Shown: positions 2,711 to 53,750 of the stretch, in pieces
Layout: every line of letters starts with the position of its first letter
How positions within the stretch are numbered: position 1 is the stretch's first letter
Virus record (IMG/VR): IMGVR_UViG_3300010413_000043
Location: 1 to 53,750 of that record
From: a virus
Reading direction: 5' to 3' (one strand)
Length of the DNA: 53,750 nt
Notes under the pieces: model-generated
Databases searched by the model: none
The model's input: the letters and a program-made list of their open reading frames with translations, nothing else
What the model was told of the DNA's origin: nothing
Program-made: the position numbers and the translations under genes

Positions 2711-3031
2711 TCATAATTCTTTGATTTCTTTTTCTATTTGTTCTTTTTCCTTAGTGTAGTAATCAGATAACATAATTTTTATCTGATTTATAAGTTCTAT
2801 ATTTTCAATTCTAAGCTCAACATGATAACCAACAAATTCAGTGTATTGACATAATTCAATAACATTTATTGATTTCATGTTTTTTAACATCTTATCAACT
2901 ACTGAAAGTCTTCTATTAAGCTGTTTTCCTTTCTCGAAATTGTAAGCTTTATCAAAATAATCTTTTAACTGATTATCTTCTTCATTAGATTGAATGTTTT
3001 CTTTCTTCTTAAAAATGTTTCTTAGTTTCAT
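2711..3031 (-). CDS. Hypothetical coiled-coil protein (106 aa)
   Basis: ORF with an ATG at 3031. K/E-rich. Confidence 0.6.
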   Translation of the reverse strand: MKLRNIFKKKENIQSNEEDNQLKDYFDKAYNFEKGKQLNRRLSVVDKMLKNMKSINVIELCQYTEFVGYHVELRIENIELINQIKIMLSDYYTKEKEQIEKEIKEL

Positions 3032-6011: not shown

Positions 6012-6428
6012 TTAAAATGGCAAATCATCTTCTATATTTTCTTGCTGATTAGCAACATTATTCGCATTGTTATTATCACTTTGCGAATTATTTTCGCTTT
6101 GTTTGCTACCTAGCATCTGAACGGTTTGGCATATTATCTCAGTAGTGTAATGTTTAACACCATCTTTATCATCCCACGACCTGGTATGCAAAAAACCTTC
6201 AATATAAAGTTGCATTCCTTTTTTGAAATACTTTTCTGCGACATCTGCAAGCTTATTCTTAATAACAATATTATGCCATTCTGTATGAGTTACTTTTTCG
6301 CCTTGCTTATTTGTATAATTCATGCTAGTTGCAACGCGAAAGTTTGCAATTTTGCCGCCATTTTCAAAGGTTTTTATTTCAGGATCAGCTCCTAAATGTC
6401 CAACGATTATTGATTTATTTATGCTCAT
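6012..6428 (-). CDS. ssb: Single-stranded DNA-binding protein
   Basis: MSINKSIIVGHLGADPEIKTF...WHNIV OB-fold pattern, an N/Q-rich linker and an acidic DDLPF C-terminal tip. Start set at the internal ATG at 6428. Confidence 0.9.
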   Translation of the reverse strand: MSINKSIIVGHLGADPEIKTFENGGKIANFRVATSMNYTNKQGEKVTHTEWHNIVIKNKLADVAEKYFKKGMQLYIEGFLHTRSWDDKDGVKHYTTEIICQTVQMLGSKQSENNSQSDNNNANNVANQQENIEDDLPF

Positions 6429-7125
6429 TTTCGTTATTATTTTTATTGCTGTTAATAATTCTGTAAACTGATGCAATATGAAGCGAAAACATTTGCGAAA
6501 TTTCTTTCGCACTTTTTCCTTCCTGAGAGAGTTTTATTATTCTTTTGTTTCTTTCTTCTATAGAAAATAAATCATCCGGTTTTATTGGTTCATAATTAAT
6601 ATTATCTGATTCATCTTTTATAAAAAGATCTATAGTTGATAAATTCCTTATAATAGATTCACCGAAAGATTCAGAATCTTTTATTGATTGTTTACTATAA
6701 AGATTTTTTTCTTTTTCACTCAATACAAATCCTTTATTTTCATCTTTCAACTTAATATAAGCATACATTATAATAATAAAGCCTGAATATAGCCCATAAT
6801 AAACAGAGGCAAACCATTTCCAAACGTTCTCTATTAATTCTGTGTTGTTATAAAGAAATACACCGATCGTTTCTAAAATGGCCGTTAAAATGACAAATAA
6901 CCAGAATAAACGATCTTTCCTATCGAGTAAAGCAATTATTATTGTTGTTACGATTCCGAAAGCTGCCCCGAAAAGATAAGGAACCAATAATTTAAGATCA
7001 TACCCGAATAAGATAAATAGTTTCGAATCCTTCCCGGGATCAAGAGAGTGCAAAAACTTGCTGTGAGTTATAAAAAGGAATAGGGCTATGAATATTAGCC
7101 CTATCACATAAAGTACCTTTTTCAT
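6415..7125 (-). CDS. Membrane protein with a C-terminal helix-turn-helix
   Basis: About 4 hydrophobic helices in the first 125 aa. The C-terminus (IIKLSQEGKSAKEISQMFSLHIASVYRIINS) resembles a sigma70-r4/resolvase-type HTH. Confidence 0.55.
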   Translation of the reverse strand: MKKVLYVIGLIFIALFLFITHSKFLHSLDPGKDSKLFILFGYDLKLLVPYLFGAAFGIVTTIIIALLDRKDRLFWLFVILTAILETIGVFLYNNTELIENVWKWFASVYYGLYSGFIIIMYAYIKLKDENKGFVLSEKEKNLYSKQSIKDSESFGESIIRNLSTIDLFIKDESDNINYEPIKPDDLFSIEERNKRIIKLSQEGKSAKEISQMFSLHIASVYRIINSNKNNNENEHK

Positions 7126-9014: not shown

Positions 9015-9939
9015 CTTCCTCGAATTTAACGAATTTCTTAACCTCAGAGTTATATATTGCCACCTTATTATCAGTCGCATGTTTTTTCAACAACGCAAAA
9101 ATTTGCAATTGAATGTTTTTGCTTTTATCTTTTTTAAGCTTTTCAATAAGCTCATTACATGCTTTGATAGTTTTAAAGCCGGATATTTCTTCTTTATAGG
9201 CTTTAATCTTATTTAAAAACTCTTGTTGCTTTTCTGAAATCTCATTCATTCGGTCAAGAGTTTTATTGATTAATTGCTGAAAGAAATTATCATATTCTTT
9301 TTCGCTTGATTCTGGTACCTCAATAAGTCCAATATTAGCGCAATCTTTGCCATCGTGAGCATCAACAGGCCTAAAATCAATTACTCTTTTATTCTGATCG
9401 GAATACATATATCCGATTAAATCTGATTCTTGACGTAAGATGTCAAGTGCTCCACCGGTAACTCTCGGTATCACCTTTCCATCCTTATCATTATCTTTCG
9501 AAGCGTGACATATAAATACAACATTTGCCCCCAGGCTTTTAGTCCAGTCTTTAAATTGTTTGAAAACGCTTTTAATTGCCCCGTAACCTTGTAAAGATAA
9601 CTCTCCCCCTCTTCGCTGATTCTTAGGATCAATCTTTTTAACGTAATTAGCAATGTAATTATCGATAAGTGTACCACCGGTATCGACAATAATTGTTTTA
9701 GGTGCTAATTGCACCAACTCCGGAGAGTTTTGTAACTCTGTAATATCTTCCCAAGAATCTACACGGACAAAATTCTTTTGCCCTATTGAACGTTGTACAC
9801 CCATATCAAAATCTAATAACAATGGGTTTTCAGATGTGAATGTTAATGATGTTTTACCGATTCCAGGATCCCCGAAAATAGTTGCTGATAGTGTTTCCGT
9901 TTTTAAAACATCTTGCTCATTAAAAAATTTAAGTGCCAT
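9001..9939 (-). CDS. AAA_24 / Sak4-like RecA-fold ATPase (recombination)
   Basis: Walker A GDPGIGKTS and Walker B-like IIVDTGG. Sits next to nucleases and SSB, as in Sak4-type modules. Confidence 0.6.
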   Translation of the reverse strand: MALKFFNEQDVLKTETLSATIFGDPGIGKTSLTFTSENPLLLDFDMGVQRSIGQKNFVRVDSWEDITELQNSPELVQLAPKTIIVDTGGTLIDNYIANYVKKIDPKNQRRGGELSLQGYGAIKSVFKQFKDWTKSLGANVVFICHASKDNDKDGKVIPRVTGGALDILRQESDLIGYMYSDQNKRVIDFRPVDAHDGKDCANIGLIEVPESSEKEYDNFFQQLINKTLDRMNEISEKQQEFLNKIKAYKEEISGFKTIKACNELIEKLKKDKSKNIQLQIFALLKKHATDNKVAIYNSEVKKFVKFEEDVQG

Positions 9940-9952
9940 AATAAATTAATTT

Positions 9953-10201
9953 TTAAAGGTTTTTATACTTGTCAATTATTTCTTGAGGGAAAAGCTCATC
10001 TAAGCTTACGCCCAAAACTTGACTAAATTTCATCATCGAATAAATATCGATTGATCTGTTACGATAAGTTGCCAATCTGGCAACTCTTGTCCTGGCTGAT
10101 TCTTTAGAAATATCGGGCCAAATCATGACACCGAGTTTTTCATAATCTAATTGTTCACCGGTCCGCGCATGATAAGCGGCCATAGCTTTTTTTATTTGCA
10201 T
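9953..10201 (-). CDS. XRE/Cro-like HTH transcriptional regulator
   Basis: 82 aa. SKESARTRVARLATYRNRSIDIYSMMKFSQVLGVSLDELF resembles the HTH_3 pattern. It is the second gene after early promoter 1. Confidence 0.6.
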   Translation of the reverse strand: MQIKKAMAAYHARTGEQLDYEKLGVMIWPDISKESARTRVARLATYRNRSIDIYSMMKFSQVLGVSLDELFPQEIIDKYKNL

Positions 10202-10217
10202 ATATAAATTTTAGATT

Positions 10218-10427
10218 TTACCATTTGCCAATATATATTATATCAACTTTATGGCCTGATAAATAAAATTTTACTTCTCTCCAAATTTCAGATAGAGTTT
10301 TATTTTCAAGATATTTATTATTACGATAACGCCAAAATACTCTCATTACAAGCTTCTGAGCTAAATATTTATTACTTCCAACTCCGTATCCTATATCTGT
10401 CCTTGCGTTTATTATTATATTTCTCAT
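10218..10427 (-). CDS. Hypothetical early protein (69 aa)
   Basis: First ORF after promoter cassette 1. ATG at 10427. Confidence 0.6.
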   Translation of the reverse strand: MRNIIINARTDIGYGVGSNKYLAQKLVMRVFWRYRNNKYLENKTLSEIWREVKFYLSGHKVDIIYIGKW

Positions 10428-12694: not shown

Positions 12695-13041
12695 AGTCTT
12701 GATCTTTTAATTATTACAAATATAAGGGCTATACTGATTAATAAAACAGTATAATAAAAGTAAAATGTTAAATCAGTTTTTGGATTAATTAAATTTATTA
12801 TACTCATTATCAATAACCCTATCGCTCCCCCAGCGATGGCAATTGATATATCTTTTAATATACCAATATTGATTAGTTTGGCACTTCCTAAGAATATTAA
12901 AATACTTCCAGACAATACAGCCCGGAAGTAAATTATGTGTTCAATTCCATTATCAGTTTTAAAGCAAAATGTTATTGCTGCTCCAAAAAAGATTATGCAA
13001 CCCCCTAAAAAAATTAATATTTCAGCTAATTTTTTACTCAT
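12634..13041 (-). CDS. Multi-pass membrane protein (135 aa), holin candidate
   Basis: About 4 hydrophobic helices. It is the first sizeable gene of the lysis cassette. Confidence 0.45.
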   Translation of the reverse strand: MSKKLAEILIFLGGCIIFFGAAITFCFKTDNGIEHIIYFRAVLSGSILIFLGSAKLINIGILKDISIAIAGGAIGLLIMSIINLINPKTDLTFYFYYTVLLISIALIFVIIKRSRLWYQTRFRILALFRRLLFRL

Positions 13042-15624: not shown

Positions 15625-17064
15625 TTAATTATCCTGTACAGGACTATACTGTATATATGTATTGTCTGCTTTCACAAATATTTGTACAATATCGTCTAAA
15701 CCCAAAATAATTGTTCCACTTGTATTAAAATTACCACCGTCATTTATCATTAATGTATATGTATCTGATGTTCCTATTATTGTATATATTCTACCTATTA
15801 CAGGATTATCAAAATCTGTTAATGTTACAGACGTTGTTGTTCCATCATAGTAATATATCTGTCTACTATTCATGTCTGGCGTAGCGTCTCCATCTGCAAT
15901 TGTTCCAGTAGTATAATTTGATCCATACATAGATAGATTACTTGCTACATTAACAGATCCACCCGTAAAATAATGAACGCAATCTCCGCCGCCAGTTGGC
16001 CCATAAAATATATCCACCTGCCCTGGCTCCTGATTAACAAATTTAATTGCAGTTTCATTTCCTATTATTAACTCGTTTTTATCTGAATTACCATACATAC
16101 TATCCGAAGAAATGGCAACATCTGAACTTATATTATTTGCTATGTTTATGTTAGCTTTATCTGTAAATAAACCTATTTCTCCATCAAGTCCATTTAGACT
16201 AACTTCTGCATAATTTGACCCAGCTTGAGAATGTAAAACAATATCAGACCCAGACGTTCCTGTTATATATGTATTGTCATCAGAACCTGTTAAGCCTGAA
16301 ATATTAATTTCAAAAGTTCCATCTCTGGCAATATAAAAATAATTATACCCATTTCCGTTATAATCACCAAAATGATATGCATCACCATCAAATGAAAATT
16401 CCTGTCCTGTAGTAACATCACTAACTGTCTGAAATCCTCCAGACCCGTCAGATATTTGTATATTTCCCGTAGTCCCTGCCGACTGTCCTGACGTGCAATT
16501 AAGGCAATAGCCTGCCGTATCTGCATAAATAGAACTATCAATATTATTTGTATCAATTTGAGCCCACGTTAATCTTAAGCTATCAGGATCATATATTGGC
16601 ACTGCTAAATAATTCGGAAACCATATTGGCCATAACGAATCAATTGATGATGTATCCATTTGCGCCCATGTCATTTTTCCAGAATCAGGATCAAATATAG
16701 CTGCAGACAAATAATCAGGCACCCAATCAGGGAAAATAGTATCCACATTTGTAGTATAAATTTGAGCCCACGTTAATCTTAAACTATCCGGATCGTAAAT
16801 AGGAGATGCTAAATAATTAGGTAACCAATTTGGAAGTAATCCAAGTTTTATTAAATCACTATATTGAAATACTTCAGGACCTACTTTAATAGAATCAAAC
16901 ACACAAAATTGTATATAACTTGAATCTGTAGTTCCGTAAATTGGACTATTCCAAACTTTTAAATTACCCCAAATGACAACGTCTTTATATAATCTTTCAG
17001 GATTTTGCCCGAATAAATTAAATCCAATTATTAAGGCTGCTATTATTGTAATTATCTTTTTCAT
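15625..17064 (-). CDS. Signal-peptide protein with 3 tandem 34-aa repeats and a G/S/T/N-rich fibre-like C-terminus
   Basis: MKKIITIIAALIIGFNLFGQ signal-like N-terminus. Repeats (PNYLA.PIYDPDSLRLTWAQ) span aa 77-178. Confidence 0.5.
   Translation of the reverse strand: MKKIITIIAALIIGFNLFGQNPERLYKDVVIWGNLKVWNSPIYGTTDSSYIQFCVFDSIKVGPEVFQYSDLIKLGLLPNWLPNYLASPIYDPDSLRLTWAQIYTTNVDTIFPDWVPDYLSAAIFDPDSGKMTWAQMDTSSIDSLWPIWFPNYLAVPIYDPDSLRLTWAQIDTNNIDSSIYADTAGYCLNCTSGQSAGTTGNIQISDGSGGFQTVSDVTTGQEFSFDGDAYHFGDYNGNGYNYFYIARDGTFEINISGLTGSDDNTYITGTSGSDIVLHSQAGSNYAEVSLNGLDGEIGLFTDKANINIANNISSDVAISSDSMYGNSDKNELIIGNETAIKFVNQEPGQVDIFYGPTGGGDCVHYFTGGSVNVASNLSMYGSNYTTGTIADGDATPDMNSRQIYYYDGTTTSVTLTDFDNPVIGRIYTIIGTSDTYTLMINDGGNFNTSGTIILGLDDIVQIFVKADNTYIQYSPVQDN
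16531..16836 (-). repeat. 3 x 102-bp in-frame tandem repeat
   Basis: Encodes LPNWLPNYLASPIYDPDSLRLTWAQIYTTNVDTI / FPDWVPDYLSAAIFDPDSGKMTWAQMDTSSIDSL / WPIWFPNYLAVPIYDPDSLRLTWAQIDTNNIDSS. Confidence 0.85.
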
Positions 17065-36086: not shown

Positions 36087-37628
36087 CTAGTCGGTTTCTT
36101 CTGTATATGTATCATCATTATCGTTATTTTGTTCGTCTTTATATTTCAGTTTTACAAGCTTTTTAAATATTGCCCTTATCCCCTTACTTAAACCGGCAGT
36201 GCTATCAGGGGCATCATCATTATCATTCTTTCCTTCTTTTACAAAGTCTGTCAAGTTTACAAAGTATTCTTTGTATGCATCATCCTGCTCATCATCCTCA
36301 AGAAAATAAAAGTCATAAATATATCCGGCTTCGAAAAGTATTCGAGTTATCTTCATTACATTTGATGGCTGTCTTAATCCATTAACTTTATAAGGTTTTA
36401 CAAGATTTCTAATATTATTAACATATAAAGTACCCTCTTTATTTGTCTCTATGTATGTCCAATCAATACCATGCTTTTTAATAAATGCCACCTGTTTAGG
36501 TTGTGTGTATTTGAATTCTTTCCTGGTAAATATTACATCTGTTATGAAAACATCATAAATATTATCTGGATTACTGAATATATAACCAACAGGTGCGCTA
36601 TAATAATCATTTCCTTTATCGGCAGTATCGACAAAACATACCTTCCCGATTAGGTTATCCATGTTCAAATCTGCCTTTCTGAATCGTTTTAATTCAGATT
36701 TACGGAACAATATACCCTTAAATTCAACCGGATTTTGCATGTACTCGGATAACCAAAACTCCTCTTTTCCTTTCCTGTAAAATCTATCCCGGATCTTTCT
36801 ATACTTCTTAGTCGTTTTAACTTTCTCGCAAAATGAATTGTCGTTTTCATCCAGAGCCGGGACCTTTATAAATATGTCATAATCCCCGGCATCATGTTTC
36901 ACACCCATATAATCTTTCGTGGTCCAACGTGTACCCACATCATACTGCTTTACTATATCCTCAAGCCTGGAATCAAAAGCAGAATCCATAAATATGTCAG
37001 TCCTTTCAATTATAGTCGGACTCATAGCCTCATTATGTGATTTGTATAAATCGTCCGTTATAGCCACCAGAGTTGCACCCAATCCAATTATTGCACCATC
37101 CACACCGGCACCGAAATAACTTACACCCTGCTCTGATTTTTCTAATGACCAACCGGTTACAGCTGCATTTTCTCGGTCAAGATATATACCTGGAAATACA
37201 TCACAAAATTTTTCTGAATTAATAATATTCCTAACGTCACGAGAAAGTTTGTTGTATAGGCTTTGTCCGTGTGAAACTCTCATTATGCTTTCAGTCGGAT
37301 ATTTACCAAGTCCCCACGTACAAGCCATACTAATACCGTAGCTTTTTCCGGCACGAGGTGGAAGAGATGCCCCAGCTATCTCAGGGTTCTCATTGAACTT
37401 TTCTACATACTTATTACTCTTTATTCTTTCGATTAATCCAACTGGTATCTTTTCTTTTCTTTCCCACTGTATAAGGTATTGATACACGTCTATTACAGGT
37501 TGTAGAAAATCCTGACGTTCTAAAAAGAAGTCAGGATTCATGTACACACAGTATTCCCATGCATAGGAACGCGCTAATATTATCTGAAGTTCATCATCTG
37601 TAATCGAAGGAAGTTTCTCCCTACCCAT
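36087..37628 (-). CDS. terL: Terminase large subunit
   Basis: Walker A-like PPRAGKSY, Walker B VAITDDLY, and a C-terminal nuclease-like VDTADKGNDYYS. 513 aa, upstream of the portal gene. Confidence 0.85.
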   Translation of the reverse strand: MGREKLPSITDDELQIILARSYAWEYCVYMNPDFFLERQDFLQPVIDVYQYLIQWERKEKIPVGLIERIKSNKYVEKFNENPEIAGASLPPRAGKSYGISMACTWGLGKYPTESIMRVSHGQSLYNKLSRDVRNIINSEKFCDVFPGIYLDRENAAVTGWSLEKSEQGVSYFGAGVDGAIIGLGATLVAITDDLYKSHNEAMSPTIIERTDIFMDSAFDSRLEDIVKQYDVGTRWTTKDYMGVKHDAGDYDIFIKVPALDENDNSFCEKVKTTKKYRKIRDRFYRKGKEEFWLSEYMQNPVEFKGILFRKSELKRFRKADLNMDNLIGKVCFVDTADKGNDYYSAPVGYIFSNPDNIYDVFITDVIFTRKEFKYTQPKQVAFIKKHGIDWTYIETNKEGTLYVNNIRNLVKPYKVNGLRQPSNVMKITRILFEAGYIYDFYFLEDDEQDDAYKEYFVNLTDFVKEGKNDNDDAPDSTAGLSKGIRAIFKKLVKLKYKDEQNNDNDDTYTEETD

Positions 37629-37629
37629 A

Positions 37630-38058
37630 TTAAATACATGTAATTACTAATGTTTGCAGTTTTCCGGCATCGTAAATATACTCGACATCTGTAATTTTTA
37701 ATATTAAATCACCTTCATCGTAAGGATTATCAATTCTTATTTTATCGTATCTTCTAGGAACTATTCCAAAAGGAAATTCCATTGTAATACTTTTCAGCCC
37801 ATTTTTACCAGGCTTAAAGTGTGCTTCTGAATAAACTATACATTTTATAGTTTTTGCTGGTGCTAATAGTTCATCATTTTTTGCTAAAAAGTAAAATAAG
37901 GCTCCGAATATCAATAATAAATATGATAATAATAAAGCATATTTTTCAATGTCATCTAATTCAATGAACATAAATAATACTTTGTTTATTATCCATATTG
38001 CTACACCCCATTGTAGCAAAATTTTTGACCACTTTGATAAATTTTCAATTCTTTTCAT
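37630..38058 (-). CDS. Membrane protein (first late gene, in the usual TerS position)
   Basis: Two hydrophobic helices (ILLQWGVAIWIINKVLFMF, ALLLSYLLLIFGALFYFL). The listed start at 38079 is TTG; the ATG is at 38058. Confidence 0.55.
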   Translation of the reverse strand: MKRIENLSKWSKILLQWGVAIWIINKVLFMFIELDDIEKYALLLSYLLLIFGALFYFLAKNDELLAPAKTIKCIVYSEAHFKPGKNGLKSITMEFPFGIVPRRYDKIRIDNPYDEGDLILKITDVEYIYDAGKLQTLVITCI

Positions 38059-38100: not shown

Positions 38101-38128
38101 AAAAAAACCCTGTGAAGCACTCACAGGG
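38101..38128 (-). terminator. Strong intrinsic terminator immediately upstream of the late operon
   Basis: CCCTGTGA(38108-38115)/TCACAGGG(38121-38128) with a 5-nt loop, followed by 7 U on the minus strand (plus-strand A-run 38101-38107). Confidence 0.8.
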
Positions 38129-38195
38129 TAACGAAACATTTAACTGAAAAGCCGGTTTAAAAATAAACCCCAGAATAATTGCCTTACAATCTATA

Positions 38196-38203
38196 CAAAT
38201 ATA
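38196..38203 (-). promoter_or_regulatory. -7-type promoter box TATATTTG (no matching -33)
   Basis: The minus-strand 13-mer TGTATATTTGTAT is identical to the one at 52517-52529. ATATTTGTAT is shared with the three early cassettes. Confidence 0.45.
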
Positions 38204-38214
38204 CAATTTTTTGA

Positions 38215-38454
38215 TTAAAACATAACCCTATACATATCTTTTAATATTATCGTATCATTGATATTGAATATTGTATCATGCTTTAAGAGTCTTGATGATT
38301 TACATCTGTAATCATAGACATAATAATACTTTTCATCTTCATTATATATTACTTTTGCCCCTGTATTATAATCCTGTTCAATACAGTTACATAATTTATA
38401 AGTTGAGCAGGAATAGAACATTAATAAGATTGTTAGTTTAGTTAGATTTTTCAT
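38215..38454 (-). CDS. Putative lipoprotein (79 aa)
   Basis: MKNLTKLTILLMFYSCS reads as a signal peptide with a lipobox-like Cys. Confidence 0.5.
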   Translation of the reverse strand: MKNLTKLTILLMFYSCSTYKLCNCIEQDYNTGAKVIYNEDEKYYYVYDYRCKSSRLLKHDTIFNINDTIILKDMYRVMF

Positions 38455-39340: not shown

Positions 39341-39928
39341 TTATAACTGTTTAATTATTTCACTCCATTGCTCAGACATAGCTTCGGCAATTCCTTTGAA
39401 AGTCTTTGATCTTAATTTCGCTCTGTCATTAGATGGCGACATTTTCCAAATTCTTTGCTCTCTACCTTCTACTATATTAGTAGGTTTAAGCTTAGGTAAA
39501 CTATTTAACAAAATACAAGTAGCTTTTGTTTCTCCGTGTCCAAATTGCCACGGCTGTATGATTTGGTCTGGTTTTCTGTAATGGGTTGACATTATTCCGA
39601 TTGGATTTTCTATAGCAAAGGGTATTTTTAATTTAGTAAACGCCAAGAAAAAATCAATAGACTTCTGTTGCCTTCCATCCATTTGCTTTTCTTTAAACCA
39701 CCGAGCACCACTTGAAGCTAAGTCAGTACACGGAGGAAAGGCAATAACAGCTATATATTTGCCAGAATAAGCTTCTTTTATCGCATCGTTTCGTATGTGC
39801 CATTCATGGTATCCCCCACTACAATCTATTAAATCACAACTATAAGCCTCAATTCCTTTATTTCTAAAAGCTATAGTCACAGCCTGGCTTTCTTCGCATG
39901 CTACTAATTTCATTATTTTTCCCTTCAT
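39341..39928 (-). CDS. C5-cytosine-methyltransferase-like protein lacking a canonical motif I
   Basis: Motif IV-like FPPCTDLASSG with the catalytic Cys, motif VI-like ENP, and a C-terminal RSKTFKGIAEAMSEQW. LVACEESQA stands in place of FxGxG. Confidence 0.5.
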   Translation of the reverse strand: MKGKIMKLVACEESQAVTIAFRNKGIEAYSCDLIDCSGGYHEWHIRNDAIKEAYSGKYIAVIAFPPCTDLASSGARWFKEKQMDGRQQKSIDFFLAFTKLKIPFAIENPIGIMSTHYRKPDQIIQPWQFGHGETKATCILLNSLPKLKPTNIVEGREQRIWKMSPSNDRAKLRSKTFKGIAEAMSEQWSEIIKQL

Positions 39929-40224
39929 AAAGCTTTTTTAAGTTGTTTGCATTTTATCCAATCTTCACCTCTTCCTATTCCGGAGTCTATCATATGTTCA
40001 CATCTTAAGCATTTATTTGATCCTATATAGCATTCTTTTAATTTACATTTTTCATAAAAATCACCATCAATGTTTTTTGGATAATATTTATTTTCCTCCC
40101 ATTTTTTTAGTGCTTTGTAATATGCTTTTTCTCCTCCTTTAATTGTCCAGGTTCCGTATTTAGAATATTTATGACTTTCCTCCCAGCCGGAATTTTCCGG
40201 ATTTGGTTTGCTTGTTTGTTTCAT
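39925..40224 (-). CDS. Cys-rich small protein (99 aa)
   Basis: CKLKEC...CLRCEH...C cluster. ATGA overlaps on both sides. Confidence 0.55.
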   Translation of the reverse strand: MKQTSKPNPENSGWEESHKYSKYGTWTIKGGEKAYYKALKKWEENKYYPKNIDGDFYEKCKLKECYIGSNKCLRCEHMIDSGIGRGEDWIKCKQLKKAL

Positions 40225-41087
40225 TTTGTTAAGTATTTAATCGCATCTTTATATTTTATTCCGTTATTTTCGTAATTCATAACTGAATTATATATTGCTG
40301 GATAATTATTTTTCAATCGTTCAAATCTATTATCCAAATGGCAACCAAATCCGCATACCATACAGCCAGTCTGCTTTTCTCCTTTATCATAAATCTCACA
40401 ATAAGATAATTTATATTTTCTTATTATTTCCCAAATATCATTTGTTGTAAATATACTCAAAGGATAACTAGCCTGTCTTTTAGTATAAAAAGAATTACAT
40501 CCATTTTTTAAATACTTTTGCTTACGCAAACTGCTTTCTGAAGCCATTGTTCCAATTATTGGTTTCAATCCTGTTTCTTTCTCGAATTTAATTGCTGGCT
40601 TTTTCTTTAAATAATAGCAGCATTTTTCTGATATATCAAAATGTGATTTAATTAAATACTGCCATTTATTTGAAATCTTACCCTGATTACCATTACGACC
40701 ATTTAAGCGTAAGTTAAGAAGCTTTTCGCTATTCGTTGTTCTTGCTTCTCTTATATATTGAGCCTGCTCCTTAGATATCAGAGGAAATCCATATTTTTCA
40801 ATTACTTTTTTTAAATTTATTTCAGGCTCTATTCTAATTAAATTAGGAATAGTTTTAATAAATTTATAAATATCAGGATACTCATTTGTTGTATTGAAAA
40901 ATACGGCTGGTATATCTTTTTTTATCATTCGACACAAATATAACAATACTGTACTGTCCTTACCTCCTGAAAAACTTACATAGCTATCAAAATGATTAAG
41001 CCAATTTTCTATAGTTCCTAAAGCATGGTCAATTTTTTGATTTATATTCCATGTTAATCTATCGTTATATTCTTTAATACTTACCAT
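40221..41087 (-). CDS. PAPS-reductase / DndC-like PP-loop ATPase
   Basis: PP-loop SFSGGKDSTVLL and a C-terminal Cys cluster CMVCGFGCH. Confidence 0.7.
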   Translation of the reverse strand: MVSIKEYNDRLTWNINQKIDHALGTIENWLNHFDSYVSFSGGKDSTVLLYLCRMIKKDIPAVFFNTTNEYPDIYKFIKTIPNLIRIEPEINLKKVIEKYGFPLISKEQAQYIREARTTNSEKLLNLRLNGRNGNQGKISNKWQYLIKSHFDISEKCCYYLKKKPAIKFEKETGLKPIIGTMASESSLRKQKYLKNGCNSFYTKRQASYPLSIFTTNDIWEIIRKYKLSYCEIYDKGEKQTGCMVCGFGCHLDNRFERLKNNYPAIYNSVMNYENNGIKYKDAIKYLTK

Positions 41088-42252: not shown

Positions 42253-42762
42253 TTATTTTTTTTGCATTAATAATAATTGATTCTGAGCAATTTTAGCAAT
42301 TTCATAAGCTACTTTTATCTTAGAATACTCATTGCTTGTATTGTCAGTTTCATACGATTTGTTTTCTTTAAAAAAAATATCCCATTCTTTTACACTTTTT
42401 TCTTTGCAGCCTATTTTAATTAAATCTTTGAATACTATTATATTCCATTTGCAATAAAGATTTAATATTATAGCTCCGACATCCTGATTGCCTCTGATAT
42501 CCTGATTGCCTATGACATACTGATAGCCTATGACATCCTGATTGCCTATGACATACTGATAGCCTATGACATCCTGATTGCCTCCGACATACTGATAGCC
42601 TATGACATACTGATATCCTCTGACATTCTGATAGCCTATGACATTCTGATTGCCTTTTGTTATTAAATTACCTTCAACGTATATATTGTTACATATTATG
42701 TTTTTTGTAATTATTGTTTCACCAGATATATACACGTTTTCATTTAGCATATTTATATCCAT
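42253..42762 (-). CDS. Hexapeptide-repeat (beta-helix-like) protein
   Basis: About 10 consecutive hexapeptides (VIGYQY / VIGNQD / VRGYQY). 169 aa. Confidence 0.6.
   Translation of the reverse strand: MDINMLNENVYISGETIITKNIICNNIYVEGNLITKGNQNVIGYQNVRGYQYVIGYQYVGGNQDVIGYQYVIGNQDVIGYQYVIGNQDIRGNQDVGAIILNLYCKWNIIVFKDLIKIGCKEKSVKEWDIFFKENKSYETDNTSNEYSKIKVAYEIAKIAQNQLLLMQKK
42478..42655 (-). repeat. About 10 x 18-bp tandem repeat (coding)
   Basis: Plus strand reads gacatcctgattgcctat / gacatactgatagcctat alternating with point variants. Confidence 0.9.
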
Positions 42763-44074: not shown

Positions 44075-45139
44075 TTACCGGCAATGCTTGGCTTTTAAGC
44101 CATTAAGTAAATGCGCAATTACATCAACAGTCCATCCGTTACCAAGCATTCTGTATCTTTGGGTATTACTTACACAATCGGTGTATCCATCAGGTACATT
44201 TTGCAGTCTTTCGCATTCGGTTGGTGTAATGTATCTAAAAAAGAACTCGTCAGCAGGTATCCTATTCGGTAAAGTAAAAGGTACTACAACGTTATCTTTT
44301 CCAACTGTGGTTAAAGCGTTCGTTTTACCATCATATCTAAACTCAATGTATTGCTGTGTTAAGCCTTTAGTCTTTTGTTTTCCGTCCTGTCTTTTACCAT
44401 TTACTAAATACCTACCTCTCATTGCTGCAATAGCTTGCTTATCATTTGGTAAATCAACAATCCCAAAAAATCTTTGTGCGCTGTATTTCTTATGGTGGCT
44501 TGCTTCAAGCATCTGCATTTTTTCATTGTCAGCGTGTACAGTAAGCACTTTATCTTTTCTTTGGCTATGTTTAGCAAGCCATTGCATAGCCTTTTCAGTG
44601 TAGTAGTAATTTTCTTCATTTACTCCTGTTTCTCGCACATCTCCCCAAGTAATGTTTTTATCTTCTGGCTGTATTAAGTTAGGTAGGTTTGTCCAATATA
44701 GCCTTTTACGGTTCTGTGCACTTACAAGGTTGCTGTTTATTTCTATTGGTTCAACTCCTAAAGCTTCGGTAATTACCTGCTCATACTCTTTTTTCATTTT
44801 CACGTTTTCAAGCAAAAAGTATTTAGGTTTGCATTCTTTCAGTAATCGTACAAATTCAAAAAATAGTTTACTTCTTGGGTCTTCAAAATTTAATTGCTTT
44901 CCTGCAAAACTAAAACCCTGGCATGGGCTACCACCTACAAGTAAATCAATCGGTTCTAAATCTTCCGCTTTTACCTTGGTTACATCTCCAAGCTGTATAG
45001 TGTCGGGGTAGTTCTTATCGTTTACTTGGTTAGCATACTTGTCAATCTCGCTACTGTAGCGTTTATCAACTTTAATTCCTATTCTGTCTAAGGCTATCCA
45101 AATGCAGCCAATTCCGTTAAAAGTGCTTAATACGTTCAT
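44075..45139 (-). CDS. dcm: DNA (cytosine-5)-methyltransferase
   Basis: Motif I STFNGIG, motif IV GGSPCQGFSFAG, motif VI LLENV, motif X MLGNGWTV. The listed start at 45169 is TTG. The ATG at 45139 has a TAATTTTG box 12 nt upstream. Confidence 0.9.
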   Translation of the reverse strand: MNVLSTFNGIGCIWIALDRIGIKVDKRYSSEIDKYANQVNDKNYPDTIQLGDVTKVKAEDLEPIDLLVGGSPCQGFSFAGKQLNFEDPRSKLFFEFVRLLKECKPKYFLLENVKMKKEYEQVITEALGVEPIEINSNLVSAQNRKRLYWTNLPNLIQPEDKNITWGDVRETGVNEENYYYTEKAMQWLAKHSQRKDKVLTVHADNEKMQMLEASHHKKYSAQRFFGIVDLPNDKQAIAAMRGRYLVNGKRQDGKQKTKGLTQQYIEFRYDGKTNALTTVGKDNVVVPFTLPNRIPADEFFFRYITPTECERLQNVPDGYTDCVSNTQRYRMLGNGWTVDVIAHLLNGLKAKHCR

Positions 45140-45250
45140 ATTTAATTTTTTCAAAATTATTTTTGCCAACCCTCAAAAAATAAAACAAAAAGGTTCGGCT
45201 CATTTAATCAACTTCAGTGCAGTTATTCGCACTGTTCTTATACCAATTCG

Positions 45251-45710: not shown

Positions 45711-46895
45711 TTATGAATGAGCTTTGAAGTTATAAATAGGCTTAATTACTTCAATCACATCTACCGTGTCTTTTATAGCTTCTAAAATTTCGTTCATTGG
45801 CTTATATGCGTTCGGAGCTTCATCTAATGTTTCTGATAAAACAGAAGTTGAATAAACATCTTTCATTTGCTCTTTAAATTCGTCAAAATCAAGTTGTCTA
45901 TGTGCTTCTTTTCTGCCCATCAAACGCCCTGCTCCGTGTGGTGCTGAATAATTCCAATCCTCATTTCCTTTGCCTTTTGCAATAATTGATCCGTCACGCA
46001 TATTAATTGGAATCAATAACACTTCTCCTTTCTCAGCAGACACAGCACCTTTTCGCAACATCATTCTGTTAAAATCAATATAGTTGTGAATTGTTTCAAA
46101 AGAGTGCATTGCACTTAGTCCTGCTTCTCTAAGTATGATTTCAGCCATAGTTTTACGATTTAAAATAGCATACTCTTGCATTACTTTCATATCATGCATG
46201 TAGTTTTCAAAATCAGCTCCTGTTAAATAGGCTAAGTCATTATTAATATTTGGCTTTTTAAGTTTTTTCAACTCTTTACCAATTTCATTTTGTCTGCCTT
46301 CTTTTTTCAGGCGTTCAATAAGCTCTTCACGTTCTTTTGAATTGTCGGTCAAATTTCCAATTGCAATGTCTTGGTAATATTTTGCAACTTGTCCACCGAT
46401 ATTTCGAGAGCCTGAATGAATAACTAAATACAAATCGCCTTTTTCATTTTTACCAACTTCAATAAAATGGTTTCCACCACCTAATGAGCCTGTTGATAAT
46501 CTTGCACGGTCAATATTTAGATTTTTAGCAATAAGTCTATCGAAGTCAAATTCTGCTTTTGGTTCAGTGTGTATATTAAAGCCATTTGGAATAAACTCAT
46601 TTATTACAGCATCTAATTTTTGCAAATCAATTTCGTTGTCTGCTAACATTACTGTAAGCATTCCGCAGCCAATATCAACACCAACTAAATTAGGAGTAAT
46701 CTTATCTTTAATTTCCATAGTTGTGCCAATTGTACAGCCTACGCCAGCATGGCAGTCAGGCATAATTCTAATTTTAGAATCCTTGTAAGGTTCAAATTTT
46801 CCAAGTTCTTTAATCTGTTCTAAAGCAACGTCTTCTAAAGTAGTTGCGTAAATTTTAATATCGTTTCCGTTATTTCTTTTAATTATTTTTGCCAT
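45711..46895 (-). CDS. rtcB: RNA 3'-phosphate/5'-OH ligase RtcB
   Basis: PDCHAGVGCTIGT, GGGNHFIE, HSGSR and SAPHGAGR are the conserved RtcB metal/GMP-His motifs. 394 aa. Confidence 0.9.
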   Translation of the reverse strand: MAKIIKRNNGNDIKIYATTLEDVALEQIKELGKFEPYKDSKIRIMPDCHAGVGCTIGTTMEIKDKITPNLVGVDIGCGMLTVMLADNEIDLQKLDAVINEFIPNGFNIHTEPKAEFDFDRLIAKNLNIDRARLSTGSLGGGNHFIEVGKNEKGDLYLVIHSGSRNIGGQVAKYYQDIAIGNLTDNSKEREELIERLKKEGRQNEIGKELKKLKKPNINNDLAYLTGADFENYMHDMKVMQEYAILNRKTMAEIILREAGLSAMHSFETIHNYIDFNRMMLRKGAVSAEKGEVLLIPINMRDGSIIAKGKGNEDWNYSAPHGAGRLMGRKEAHRQLDFDEFKEQMKDVYSTSVLSETLDEAPNAYKPMNEILEAIKDTVDVIEVIKPIYNFKAHS

Positions 46896-47059: not shown

Positions 47060-47269
47060 TTAAAACAATTCAAATTTTCCACCTTTATGATTTCCGGATG
47101 CTCTCTGATCTGCTAATTCTCTTACACCTCTATTTGCCTTAATTTTGTTCAGGCAGTAATTATATCTATCTATAATTGACTGTTGTTTGTAAAGGTGATT
47201 AATTGCCTCGTCTGATACTGATGTTAGTATAGCTGCGTCTTTTTCGATGTTTTTTGTAAATGAGTTCAT
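47060..47269 (-). CDS. Hypothetical early protein (69 aa)
   Basis: First ORF after promoter cassette 2, with the ATG at 47269 (MNSFTKNIEKD). The listed upstream extension starts at a TTG inside the promoter. Confidence 0.55.
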   Translation of the reverse strand: MNSFTKNIEKDAAILTSVSDEAINHLYKQQSIIDRYNYCLNKIKANRGVRELADQRASGNHKGGKFELF

Positions 47270-47380: not shown

Positions 47381-47402
47381 AAAAAACCAGGTTTTATCCT
47401 GG
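47381..47402 (-). terminator. Weak hairpin plus U-run after the TerS-like gene
   Basis: CCAGG(47387-47391)/CCTGG(47398-47402) with a 6-nt loop, followed by 6 U on the minus strand. Confidence 0.5.
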
Positions 47403-48587: not shown

Positions 48588-48831
48588 TTTTAATTATTAC
48601 TTTTTCGAATTCTTTAATCGGGTCAAGTCCTTTGAATTTTAAAAACATGAAGCATGTAGTTGCTAGGTCTGTAGCTTCTTCAATTTCGTTTTCTTCGCTG
48701 TATGCGTTTTTAAGCTCATTAAACTCTTCTTCAATTTTATCAAAAAAGTCTTTTTCTGTTGTATGTTCATTAATGAGGCCACGATTTTTTATGGCCTCGT
48801 ATGAGCGGTTTATTAATGTTTTCATATCCAT
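48547..48831 (-). CDS. MazG-like nucleotide pyrophosphohydrolase candidate
   Basis: A 94-aa all-helical pattern with EE..E and E..D acidic pairs (KIEEEFNELKNA...EIEEATDLA), resembling MazG/dUTPase_2. Confidence 0.4.
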   Translation of the reverse strand: MDMKTLINRSYEAIKNRGLINEHTTEKDFFDKIEEEFNELKNAYSEENEIEEATDLATTCFMFLKFKGLDPIKEFEKVIIKNENRANDYQSRIN

Positions 48832-51134
48832 GATAGTTGTCCTTTCTGCTCTATTGCATTTCTATGATTTTTTACATTGACATTAAAATATGATTCTTTT
48901 AATTCAATTGATATTGATTTACGATTCATTTTTAATGCCTGATACCCTTCTGAACCAATTCCTCCGAATGGGCTCAATAATGTTTCACCTTTATTTGAAT
49001 ATAAAGTAATTAGTCTTTCAATAACAGGAAGTTGCAGAGGACAAATGTGTTTTTCATCATTATTTGCTCTGGCATTAATATATTGAAGCGTATCTGTTGC
49101 GTTTATATCCATCCATACAGGAGACGCATATCTTTGCCAAATATGATGAGAATATTGCTCTTTTCTTGAATATTTACTTTCTGGATCATACCCCCAGAAT
49201 TCATTAAATCCTGATATGTCACGGGGAAATTTATCAAAATCTCCCATTGGTATGTAATTTTCAAGTAAGTCATGTTCAACAGGAACTTCATTTTCATGTT
49301 TAGTTTTAAAACATTGAATTAAATCAAATATTCCAGTTCTAACCTGAATACTATCCTTACATAATTGTTGATGAGCTAATCCTTTTGTTTTTGTTCTTAC
49401 AGCTGCTAATAATGGATCTTTCCATATAGCGTGTTCTGAATGTAAAAACATATCTTCATCCTCGAATAAATCACCTATCATTGAATTAAATCTTCTTAAC
49501 CCTATATAACCATCACGGCTTTTTAATGTTGGTAAATTCATTGAATGAACACATATACATCTTCCAGGCTTAATTACTCTTTTTATTTCTTTAACTAAAT
49601 ACTTGAATTGTTGTTTGAATTGTTCATAATCAGATACATTACCCATATCCTCAATATGATTCGAATAAACATATAAATCTGCAAATGGAGGAGAAAATAC
49701 CATTATGTCGACTGAATTGTCTGGTATTTCTTTTATTCTTTGAACACAATCACCACGCATAAGCCAGTAATTATCTGTTTTTACGTCTGATGTTTTATCT
49801 ACTTTCACAGTTAATTTGTTATTTAAATTCTTGTTTACTGATTTTGTCATTAATTCTTGCATTTCATTAAATTTTTTATGTTTTTCTTGTTGAGTTTTAG
49901 TTACATTAATCATTCTATCAGTTGTAATCATATAACAATTTACAGGCTCAGTTCTTCCATATCTCCATGATCTACGCATTGCTTGATATGATTGTTCAAA
50001 ACTGAAATCAACAGAATTAAATATTTGATAACCGCAATTTTGATAATTCAATCCCATTGATGCAATTGATTGTTTAGTTATCAATATTTCATATTCTTTG
50101 TGAGCAAATCCAATTAAATCAGCCTCTTTTTTTTCTTGTTTATCTGAGCCCTGAACATTTCTACAGTCATATCCTAATTTAGTTAATTGCTTATAAATAT
50201 TATCAGCCTCAATGTTTTGTTTAGTCCAAATAATTATTTGCTCATTTTTATGTATTTCTTCTTTAATTATTGATATTGTTTGATTTATTCTTTCTTTTTC
50301 TGTATCCCTTAAACTTTGATTATAGTCCGTAGCATTAACAGCAAGTCCAGGAAATAACATTCCTTCGGGTATTGGTGTACTAACTTGTTTCTCAATTATG
50401 TTTAATTTAGGTAAATCGAATCCATTCATATTAAATCCTATATCTTTAGGATGAGAATACATAATTGCCCATGTACTTACAAATTCATAAAATCTATCTA
50501 TTGCATGACCTTTAAGTCTCCATTTACTTCCTTTTTGTTTTTTAGAATCATTAACAAAATACATTGCAAGCATTTCATCGTATGTCATTACATCTAAGAA
50601 TTCACAATGATTACCTAGTTCTGTTGGATCATTAGGACTTGGAGTAGCTGAAAAACAAAATTTATATGGAGTTTCTTTAAATTTTTCAATTAATAAATTT
50701 CTATATTTTCCAGTTTGATTTTTCAGTATTGAACTTTCATCTAAACAAATACAAGAGTAAATTGAAGTATCTATATTTTCAAGTTGCTCGTAATTTGATA
50801 TTTGAATTGGTGATGTATTATTTTCACACCACCTCTTAACTTTAATATTAAACTTATTACCTTCTTCTATTGTTTGGGCTGATACAGCAAGTGGTGATAA
50901 TATTAATGAAGGTTTATTAGTATATTTATTTACTTGATATGCAATATCTAACTGCATAGCTGTTTTACCTTGGCCTGTATTGGCAAATATTGCATATTTA
51001 CCAGCCATTAAAGCTCTTTTAATTGTGAATTTCTGAAATTCAAATAATTTATCATTAAGTTCATTTTCAGAAATATCAAATCCAGAATAAATAATATTCT
51101 TCTGCTTACTATTTAAAAATTCGTTATAATTCAT
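48822..51134 (-). CDS. SNF2/DEAD-type helicase fused to an N6-adenine/N4-cytosine DNA methyltransferase
   Basis: Helicase motifs ANTGQGKT, LDESS, SAT and QAMRRSWRYGR are followed by MTase motif IV FSPPF and a C-terminal motif I SPFGGIGSEG (beta-class order). Confidence 0.8.
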   Translation of the reverse strand: MNYNEFLNSKQKNIIYSGFDISENELNDKLFEFQKFTIKRALMAGKYAIFANTGQGKTAMQLDIAYQVNKYTNKPSLILSPLAVSAQTIEEGNKFNIKVKRWCENNTSPIQISNYEQLENIDTSIYSCICLDESSILKNQTGKYRNLLIEKFKETPYKFCFSATPSPNDPTELGNHCEFLDVMTYDEMLAMYFVNDSKKQKGSKWRLKGHAIDRFYEFVSTWAIMYSHPKDIGFNMNGFDLPKLNIIEKQVSTPIPEGMLFPGLAVNATDYNQSLRDTEKERINQTISIIKEEIHKNEQIIIWTKQNIEADNIYKQLTKLGYDCRNVQGSDKQEKKEADLIGFAHKEYEILITKQSIASMGLNYQNCGYQIFNSVDFSFEQSYQAMRRSWRYGRTEPVNCYMITTDRMINVTKTQQEKHKKFNEMQELMTKSVNKNLNNKLTVKVDKTSDVKTDNYWLMRGDCVQRIKEIPDNSVDIMVFSPPFADLYVYSNHIEDMGNVSDYEQFKQQFKYLVKEIKRVIKPGRCICVHSMNLPTLKSRDGYIGLRRFNSMIGDLFEDEDMFLHSEHAIWKDPLLAAVRTKTKGLAHQQLCKDSIQVRTGIFDLIQCFKTKHENEVPVEHDLLENYIPMGDFDKFPRDISGFNEFWGYDPESKYSRKEQYSHHIWQRYASPVWMDINATDTLQYINARANNDEKHICPLQLPVIERLITLYSNKGETLLSPFGGIGSEGYQALKMNRKSISIELKESYFNVNVKNHRNAIEQKGQLSWI

Positions 51135-52008: not shown

Positions 52009-52338
52009 TTAATTTAATTTGTTATTTATGTGAATTCTTACTTCAATTCCAGCTTTTTGAGCAGCTTTAGCAATCTTGAAAATATGATCAGAATTATTGA
52101 TCTTTTTTGTATTTTCAGTTTTATAAAAATCATCGATAATAATTCTGAAGTTCGGATGGTTAGAGTCTGTTAATTGTCTAAATCTAATATGTGTTAATAC
52201 CTCATAAATATTACAACACCCAAAACCATAACATTCAATAGGATAATTCCATGATGTGAAATTCATTGTTTCATATGCTATTTGTAAATAAATCATGTCT
52301 GATTCATATACTTTATCAATAATCTTTAGCTTTTTCAT
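52009..52338 (-). CDS. Hypothetical early protein (109 aa)
   Basis: First ORF after promoter cassette 3. ATG at 52338. Confidence 0.6.
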   Translation of the reverse strand: MKKLKIIDKVYESDMIYLQIAYETMNFTSWNYPIECYGFGCCNIYEVLTHIRFRQLTDSNHPNFRIIIDDFYKTENTKKINNSDHIFKIAKAAQKAGIEVRIHINNKLN

Positions 52339-52435: not shown

Positions 52436-52464
52436 AAAAAAAAGCCTGGTTGGGTTCCAGGCTT
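52436..52464 (-). terminator. Intrinsic terminator ending early unit 1
   Basis: AAGCCTGG(52442-52449)/CCAGGCTT(52457-52464) with a 7-nt loop, followed by a U-run on the minus strand. Confidence 0.8.
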
Positions 52465-52527: not shown

Positions 52528-52549
52528 CAAAAATTATTTTCTTTTTTAC

Positions 52550-53074
52550 TTAGATATGTATTAAAGTTCCATCTAATTTTGATCTTTTTAACCTAATAAC
52601 ATTATGATCCCCGTATGCCACTAATGCAGAAGGCTGTTGATTACCGGTAATTTTTCCGTTTATATCCTTTATAGGATTACCGTTTATATCCATATATTGA
52701 ATACGCCCCCGAAGGAATAATATTGCATCAGCTTTACCAAATATATGATCCTGCCATGCTGCCGTATCTGTATTTACATTTATTAGCATTATACCGTTAT
52801 TATGTCTCGCCATTCTATAACACCAATCTCTAATTGTATACCCTTTTTGTCTCAAATAAGGAGGATTAAGCCAAATAGATCCGAATCTTTCCCAATCTTG
52901 TTTCATTCCGTCATCCTCTTCACAAAACGAATGTTTAGCCGTTGGCCACGGTTGCATCCATTTAGGCAAATAAGCCGGATCTAGATCATTAGCCTCGTGC
53001 CCTCCTAATGCTATTAAAATGCTTTGAGGAGTCAAATAAATATTATTCCCATCCTGTTTATCGAATCTACTCAC
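52550..53074 (-). CDS. Phage-type DNA N6-adenine methyltransferase (Dam, PF05869-like)
   Basis: DLDPA...WLNPPY catalytic motif and a 174-aa size typical of this family. The start is GTG at 53074, with no nearby ATG. Confidence 0.75.
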   Translation of the reverse strand: MSRFDKQDGNNIYLTPQSILIALGGHEANDLDPAYLPKWMQPWPTAKHSFCEEDDGMKQDWERFGSIWLNPPYLRQKGYTIRDWCYRMARHNNGIMLINVNTDTAAWQDHIFGKADAILFLRGRIQYMDINGNPIKDINGKITGNQQPSALVAYGDHNVIRLKRSKLDGTLIHI

Positions 53075-53516: not shown

Positions 53517-53750
53517 GTCTCAAAATGTTAGTTAATATTTCGTCAATAGGATATATTTTCAATTCTCTATGTGTGTGCTCATGTTCTGCAGCCGTATGGC
53601 ATTTGTGACAAAGTAAACGACTATTTCGCGGATCGTGAGCCATTTCAGGAGCTCCACCTCTTGTAATTATATGCGATACATAACCGGACCAATATTGTTG
53701 CAATGGTTTAACACATTCCTCACATATTTGTAATTTATTCTCATAACACC
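53470..53750 (-). CDS. HNH endonuclease, 3' part of the junction-spanning gene (see 1-340)
   Basis: HIITRGGAPEMAHDPRNSRLLCHKCH. The reading frame stays open to the window end and continues at 340-145 on the circle. Confidence 0.7.
   Translation of the reverse strand, partial: CYENKLQICEECVKPLQQYWSGYVSHIITRGGAPEMAHDPRNSRLLCHKCHTAAEHEHTHRELKIYPIDEILTNILRHEYSTNKETRRIEVL
53607..53750. repeat. Terminal direct repeat copy 2 (identical to 1-144)
   Basis: 144/144 identity with the window start. Confidence 0.95.

Follow-up and report, generated by a model that had tools for sequence, protein, structure and literature searches.

A probable terminator-then-promoter junction with a candidate small RNA unit ahead of the late operon of a phage related to Bacteroidales prophages

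The IMG/VR virus record IMGVR_UViG_3300010413_000043, analyzed here over its whole length of 53,750 nucleotides (nt; the window), holds the entire genome, ~53.6 kb, of an uncultured Bacteroidota phage. Bases 1–144 are identical to 53607–53750, and by this exact 144-bp repeat the contig is circular or terminally redundant. The G+C content amounts to 31.6%, and all genes reside on the minus strand. Replication and DNA-modification genes—including AAA_24, an exonuclease, SSB, DnaB, four methyltransferases, and RtcB—run from 10425 to 400 and, across the circular junction, from 53703 to 38215; a structural and lysis operon containing TerL (36087–37628), portal, and amidase genes spans 38058 to ~10600. 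The element in question lies on the minus strand at the boundary between this middle unit and the late operon. The last gene of the middle unit, an open reading frame (ORF) of 79 aa at 38215–38454, closes with a TAA stop at 38217–38215. It is followed by a putative promoter box, box A (TTGTATATTTGTAT, 38206–38193), whose −7 element TATATTTG corresponds to TAnnTTTG at 38203–38196, by a leader of 66 nt, and by an intrinsic terminator (38129–38101) with a 9–10-bp stem containing 5 G-C pairs, a loop, and a run of seven T residues. Next come a second −7 box, TATTTTTG (38084–38077), termed P2 and a candidate promoter of the late operon, and a 12-mer, AAACGTAACATT (38070–38059), in the late 5′ untranslated region (UTR). 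The 12-mer abuts the ATG at 38058, 18 nt downstream of P2, which opens the first late gene (37630–38058, 142 aa). A preliminary description of the locus had given this order except for P2, which it missed, and its coordinates were borne out (stop, box A, a leader of ~66 nt, hairpin 38129–38107 with T7, ATG 38058). The 27-kb late operon that it drew from ATG 38058 through TerL was likewise confirmed: a strict scan returned four strong terminators on the coding strand, at 52464, 38129, 10543, and 7107, none of them between 38100 and 10543, where a single weaker one is found at 12930–12903.

The terminator hairpin ACCCTGTGAGTGCTTCACAGGGT (38129–38107) has a predicted energy of −14.0 kcal/mol, and its T7 occupies 38107–38101. 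Reading the GC palindrome as a cos or pac site was ruled out by the terminator orientation and the T-run; such a reading is also opposed by equivalent hairpins of unrelated sequence that mark other operon boundaries. A transcript initiated at box A would end at this terminator as an RNA of ~86–92 nt (38190–38101), if its 5′ end is placed ~5–7 nt past the box and its 3′ end within the T-run. This predicted RNA, referred to as unit A, folds with −24.7 kcal/mol (z = −3.4) into a 5′ stem-loop (38191–38142, for which the minimum free energy structure equals the centroid), an unpaired linker of 12 nt, AAAUGUUUCGUU (38141–38130), and the terminator hairpin. No Rfam family matched at gathering thresholds over the whole window, the best permissive match reaching E = 0.13 and 25.9 bits against a threshold of 59.

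Named relatives of the TerL protein, as well as all matches in genome collections, belong to the Bacteroidota and are mostly Bacteroidales prophages; reading TAnnTTTG as a −7 box is therefore appropriate. Promoters of this phylum combine a −7 TAnnTTTG with a less constant −33 TTTG (PMC7366714), and a scan with the sigma-70 consensus (104 sites versus 111 expected) is uninformative for it. Box A belongs to a family of promoter words represented by the 10-mer TATATTTGTA, which has eight copies on the coding strand and none on the opposite one, against ~0.4 expected from our own composition estimate. All eight copies are intergenic or lie just before a start codon, and four carry TTTG-N19 at −33.

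P2 conforms to an arrangement that recurs in this genome. Terminators followed by promoters are also present at 52464/52385, 47402/47328, and 10543/10469. A TAnnTTTG box lies less than 60 nt past three of the four strong terminators and also past the weaker one at 47402, and the terminator-then-promoter geometry is apparently the rule at operon boundaries of this genome. At the late boundary itself, the terminator T-run falls at the −33 position of P2 (19-nt spacer). P2 would yield a 5′UTR of only ~12–16 nt, and the mode of 5′UTR length in Bacteroides is 23 nt (PMC7366714), which speaks against P2 as a promoter; however, two boxes in the lysis region are placed 22 nt before their own ATGs, so that a short leader is normal in this genome.

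The same arrangement is encountered in relatives. Megablast against deposited phages and exact-pattern scans of IMG/VR revealed no close DNA relative of the window, and TerL searches in IMG/VR, metagenomes, and genomes retrieved only relatives of ≤41% identity. The nearest genome is ENA ERZ23490721 scaffold_1 (52.2 kb), with 65% identity in TerL, 78% in DnaB, and 43% in the first late gene. At the orthologous position, this closest relative (L003) displays a first hairpin (T1), the box TACATTTG, ~45 nt, a second hairpin (T2) with T6, a −33/−7 pair (TTTG-N21-TAACTTTA), and the ATG. A distant prophage (L089) has one or more boxes, 40–76 nt, a terminator, TATTTTTG, and shortly thereafter the ATG. 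Two further relatives, L004 and L007, exhibit the plain order of stop, terminator, box, and ATG, the box being tttttttATTTGcaat-N-TATATTTG in L004 and TACTTTTG in L007. In all four, a −7-like box thus separates the last terminator from the first late gene. It therefore seems probable that the late operon is served by an insulating terminator/promoter junction with its own promoter, P2, and that an antiterminator is not required.

The preliminary description had instead likened the locus to lambda PR′-tR′ and held that, were box A a true promoter, late expression would need an antiterminator or a terminator-resistant polymerase. In such a scheme of regulated read-through, box A is the late promoter, and the hairpin stops its RNA unless the polymerase is in a terminator-resistant state; resistance might be conferred by some further phage factor or, in a put-like extension, by the leader RNA itself, and the ~90-nt by-product could act as a small RNA (sRNA). 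Part of the likeness stands. As in lambda PR′-qut-tR′/6S and in the corresponding unit of Stx phages, a promoter box and, within ~100 nt of it, a strong intrinsic terminator immediately precede the late operon. The order of box, leader, strong terminator, and late operon is real, its position is conserved in the closest relative and it recurs in L089, and the leader has a stable predicted 5′ structure. In addition, L004 harbors a similar unit elsewhere (9545–10083), comprising a full-consensus promoter, a structured leader of ~96 nt, and a weaker terminator hairpin with T6 that ends 2 nt ahead of an array of five tRNA genes (Pro, Gln, His, Arg, Leu). Because no promoter intervenes between this terminator and the array, expression of the tRNAs must pass the terminator, and read-through of a terminator of this kind would appear to be obligatory there, a point against dispensing with it here. 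There is also precedent for a short terminated transcript with a second role: the PR′-tR′ transcript of Stx phages (StxS) is an antitermination substrate and an sRNA at once (PMC7547250), and lambda 6S RNA can act as an sRNA with an early-operon target (PMC7547250; bioRxiv 10.1101/2024.10.31.621285). Since terminated PR′ transcripts act as sRNAs in both cases, the sRNA and PR′-tR′ readings are not mutually exclusive; like StxS and lambda 6S, the short terminated RNA predicted here is a possible trans-acting regulator.

What does not stand is the need for read-through. In contrast to lambda PR′-tR′, a perfect −7 box lies between the terminator and the late genes, in the geometry shared by three other boundaries and by the relatives, and this argues against an obligatory antiterminator. 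No Q homologue was recognizable, as the preliminary description had also noted: among 52 proteins scanned (50 with Pfam, mostly non-structural, and ten with PHROGs), no member of the Q, N, NusG/KOW, or sigma families was detected at E ≤ 0.01, which is a weak negative. Unlike in lambda, the promoters are of the −7/−33 type of Bacteroidota hosts, and a Q-binding element and pause elements could not be identified in unit A, there being no model for pausing with Bacteroidota sigma-A. Furthermore, the unit is not a device of the late operon. The 14-mer of box A recurs exactly once, at 52530–52517 on the minus strand, and a strong terminator again follows ~52 nt later. This second unit (unit B, 52530–52434) consists of the identical box, a leader of ~52 nt, and a terminator at 52464–52442 with a T-run; downstream of it lie a full-consensus promoter (52408–52378) and an early gene (52338–52009). 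Because an identical unit precedes an early gene with its own full-consensus promoter, the unit is not specific to the late operon, a further departure from lambda. Boxes A and B have in common only TTGTATATTTGTAT(A/T)GAT, and the leaders of unit A, unit B, and the relative's unit are alike in the box only.

RNA folding provides another argument against regulated read-through. In read-through RNA, the stretch 38152–38129 is predicted to base-pair with the late start (38071–38052) of the same molecule at −12.6 kcal/mol, a value reached by 18 of 2000 shuffles. The predicted accessibility of the late start is 0.30 in read-through RNAs versus 0.64 in an RNA starting at P2, and the relative possesses a weak equivalent of the pairing, of 6 bp. 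These models suggest that read-through transcripts are translationally masked, which would fit P2 as the productive late promoter. On balance, lambda-like regulated read-through is rather unlikely.

The unit in front of the terminator requires an explanation of its own. Two of the four strong coding-strand terminators sit after the 14-mer box, and the identity of boxes A and B over 14 nt, each with a strong terminator 52–66 nt further on, is hard to get by chance. In the closest relative, T1 already ends the upstream operon, so that the segment from the following box to T2 is a free-standing mini transcription unit; its fold resembles that of unit A in having a 5′ hairpin, a single-stranded linker, and a terminator. 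A clue to a possible function is provided by the early promoters. A module of 104 nt occurs in three copies (81–100% identical) at 52443–52340, 47386–47283, and 10527–10424. Each comprises a terminator T-run, two direct GTAACATTTC repeats flanking the −33 TTTG, the box TATATTTGTAT, and a 5′UTR with repeats, and the modules have the appearance of early promoters under common regulation, equipped with operator-like repeats. The 12-nt AAACGAAACATY repeats belong to the first genes downstream of these three repeated early promoters (AAACGAAACATT repeats): on the minus strand, two in tandem (52362–52339) abut the ATG at 52338, three in tandem (47305–47270) abut the ATG at 47269, and a single copy (10446–10435) lies 9 nt before the ATG at 10425. 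They are the predicted targets of the linker.

Within the linker, the seed AAUGUUUCGUU is the exact 11-nt reverse complement of AACGAAACAUU, a word that has four sites on the coding strand (six for its 10-mer core), all of them in early 5′UTRs and nowhere else. On the entire coding strand, position 38140 is the only one at which an 11-mer is the complement of a G/C-containing word from the early modules; 0.016–0.025 copies of the seed are expected per genome by composition, and 65 of 20000 shuffled leaders hold such an 11-mer. The linker is unpaired in the minimum free energy structure, and its accessibility exceeds that of the rest of the RNA. For the early UTRs, predicted seed duplexes have energies between −14.5 and −15.0 kcal/mol; for the late UTR, whose 12-mer differs from the early repeat by one central mismatch, the value is −8.4 kcal/mol. 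When 69 start regions are ranked as seed partners, the three early-module genes take the first three places.

These observations can be united by assuming that the element is a terminator-then-promoter operon junction with a small autonomous transcription unit placed in front. The hairpin and T7 would halt transcription arriving from the upstream replication and modification genes, and P2 would drive the late operon. Box A would promote an RNA of ~90 nt that ends at the same terminator and consists of 5′ stem-loop, 12-nt linker, and terminator hairpin. Its linker would pair in trans with the AAACGAAACAUU repeats, present in one to three copies at the starts of the first genes of three early operons. 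The simplest outcome would be that ribosome access is blocked and early translation is shut off, activation or destabilization being equally possible. The late 5′UTR 12-mer, owing to its central mismatch, would largely escape pairing in trans; in read-through RNA, the linker stretch could pair in cis with the late start and render this RNA translationally silent. That unit A is a phage sRNA of ~90 nt with a seed directed against this phage's early-operon leaders is a tentative proposal, with somewhat less than an even chance of being correct.

Several findings weigh against this proposal. Both the unit A RNA and the activity of P2 are predictions from sequence, and box A lacks a good −33 element; the closest candidate by reading, TATG, has a spacer of 17 nt. 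The specific test of the seed was designed only after the match had been noticed. With the whole leader, RNAduplex energies against all start regions equal those of shuffles. An 11-nt complement to at least one start region turns up in 36% of leaders after shuffling, since their T-runs pair with A-rich leaders; these two tests are uninformative in an AT-rich genome and were dropped. A test of the best energy was not significant (29/300). For the RNA of unit B, predicted to be ~80 nt long, no phage target was found among the start regions. In the relatives, the unit at the orthologous position in L003 has no clear anti-UTR seed—the complements of its linker are merely A-rich words expected near start codons—and the units of L004 and L089 have no meaningful complements, the match in L089 lying in coding sequence. 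Finally, G(T/A)AACATT motifs sit in promoter spacers both in the window (two copies per module) and in the relative, and the complementarity could equally reflect a protein-binding DNA motif present as an inverted copy.

The last point leads to an alternative, that of an ordinary junction in which the hairpin ends the upstream operon, P2 is the late promoter, and box A is weak, vestigial, or fortuitous. The inverted 12-mer would then be the DNA site of a regulator, centered ~64 bp upstream of the P2 start; by also binding the direct repeats at early promoters and leaders, this regulator would repress early and activate late transcription. Such a view accords with the absence of any other terminator of the upstream operon before 38129, with the plain order of stop, terminator, box, and ATG in L004 and L007, and with the missing −33 of box A. 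Promoter spacers, which are not transcribed from those promoters, suit a DNA-binding protein as the reader of G(T/A)AACATT, and helix-turn-helix proteins are indeed encoded at 6415–7125 and 2711–3031. It accounts poorly, however, for the 14-mer identity of the boxes and the recurring terminator spacing, or for the unit of the relative, which sits between two terminators and whose T2 is dispensable for terminating the upstream operon. Moreover, the inverted copy matches the transcribed 5′UTR version of the motif at 11 of 11 positions, whereas the promoter-spacer version, by reading, leaves two mismatches. An ordinary junction is thus unlikely to be the whole explanation, though it deserves serious consideration.

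Comparison with the closest relative bears on the choice between an RNA and a DNA site. Its early modules, likewise three and homologous to those of the window, carry (AAC)n tracts at their ends where the window has AAACGAAACATT repeats. The sole same-strand complement of (AAC)n in the available 30.5 kb of the relative is a (GTT)6 at L092 18187–18204, which forms the 18-nt apical loop of a predicted hairpin (L092 18164–18228, −31.6 kcal/mol, z = −3.3) in the intergenic DNA ahead of the Dam gene. Each phage thus holds a predicted single-stranded complement of the repeat in its early leaders, with a repeat-complement pair of its own sequence. This system-level co-variation, in a comparison of two metagenomic genomes only, favors an interaction at the RNA level, and the location of (GTT)6 in a hairpin loop, not near the late promoter, fits an RNA role better than the regulator site of an ordinary junction. 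Against it stands that the pattern would look no different if the complement were an inverted DNA site bound by a co-evolving protein, and that the (GTT)6 of the relative is found at another locus, without a promoter or terminator of its own. A general scheme in which Bacteroidota siphophages of this lineage time their development in part through RNA, with a lineage-specific A/C-rich repeat at the start codon of the first gene in each early operon and a small structured RNA that displays the matching anti-leader in single-stranded form, is an improbable conjecture at this stage. The unit is also not general in the wider TerL clade, since boxes upstream of terminators are uncommon in the distant TerL set (11 of 83 terminators).

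The linker contains a further feature, an AUG at 38139 that opens an ORF of 17 codons running through the hairpin and T-run; an ORF of 16 codons likewise spans the hairpin of unit B. A translation-coupled attenuator can be envisaged in which a ribosome on the ORF of the linker AUG prevents hairpin formation and allows read-through, thereby tying late transcription (unit A) or downstream transcription (unit B) to translational capacity. In both units, (U)UUAAAUG lies 8–11 nt before the hairpin, and an AUG is present in the linkers of L003 and L004 as well. The peptides of units A and B are nevertheless unrelated, the ORF in L003 has only four codons, and that in L004 runs into the tRNA genes; an AUG is expected, besides, in any seed that complements CAU-containing targets. 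Attenuation of this type is accordingly a very improbable account.

Small phage RNAs complementary to repeated operon-leader sites are familiar from enterobacterial phages, as exemplified by c4 of P1/P7, CI RNA of P4, OOP of lambda, and sar of P22; these derive by processing from the operon under their control, or lie antisense to it, and function in lysogenic immunity. Unit A resembles them in presenting a short segment complementary to repeated sites in phage operon leaders. It differs in being a separate promoter-terminator unit with early 5′UTR repeats as targets, and it shares no sequence or structural homology with them (Rfam). HK022 put RNA is a structured, cis-acting antitermination RNA. 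As in put, a structured RNA would be located just downstream of a promoter and upstream of a terminator; in contrast to put, the 5′ stem-loop is not conserved between unit A, unit B, and L003. Closer parallels exist among host RNAs. Intergenic sRNAs of Bacteroides possess their own transcription start site, an intrinsic terminator, and single-stranded seeds directed against translation-initiation regions (PMC7366714). Like the GibS-type sRNAs described there, unit A is AT-rich and ~90 nt long, has its own −7 box and an intrinsic terminator, which may be shared with the upstream mRNA, and displays a predicted single-stranded, extended seed against translation-initiation regions. Unlike them, it is a predicted RNA encoded by a phage, its putative targets are the phage's own early leaders, and its seed adjoins the terminator instead of occupying the 5′ portion. 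A literature search found neither a phage-encoded sRNA nor late antitermination for Bacteroidota phages.

Several genes around the element and elsewhere in the genome merit a brief description. The 79-aa ORF upstream of box A starts with a lipoprotein-type signal, MKNLTKLTILLMFYSCS, has no Pfam or PHROG match, and may be a moron or a gene of the superinfection-exclusion type. On the other side, the first late protein has a hydrophobic N-terminal half with two transmembrane helices by eye and no family match. It occupies the usual position of TerS but is not recognizable as such, while relatives farther off carry a GP3_package TerS; its only known counterpart is the orthologue in the closest relative (43% identity). 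The middle unit contains an unusually rich DNA/RNA-modification set. Four DNA methyltransferases are encoded at 39341–39928, 44075–45169, 48822–51134, and 52550–53074, one of them fused to a SNF2/DEAD helicase, and are accompanied by an RtcB RNA ligase (45711–46895) and a PAPS-reductase-like protein (40221–41087), a set that suggests anti-restriction and anti-tRNA-cleavage functions. No tRNA genes were found in the window. Two ORFs are built from repeats: that at 42253–42762 carries ten tandem 18-nt repeats at 42442–42691 (GACATCCTGATTGCCTAT-like, plus strand) and encodes a hexapeptide-repeat protein, and that at 15625–17064 contains three 102-nt tandem repeats at 16536–16833, 64–81% identical to the reference copy, which probably correspond to a repeated domain of a tail or fiber protein. 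The DnaB of the closest relative (827 aa, L092 10001–12484) harbors a LAGLIDADG/Hom_end intein-like insertion; the 477-aa DnaB of the window has none.

To our knowledge, almost nothing is known about the timing of gene expression in non-crAss Bacteroidota phages. A promoter and a terminator ahead of late genes do not by themselves imply antitermination of the Q type. The map of operon junctions—terminator-then-promoter modules, −33-less TATATTTGTAT boxes, and A/C-rich repeat leaders—should assist the annotation and engineering of Bacteroidales phages from the gut. Provided that the unit is expressed, this phage would possess a compact RNA aimed at its own early-operon leaders. Should the broader and less probable scheme be true, an RNA made at the middle/late boundary would shut off all early operons in trans and mask read-through late RNA in cis, and the phage would accomplish its switch from early to late expression without a protein of the Q, sigma, or activator type.

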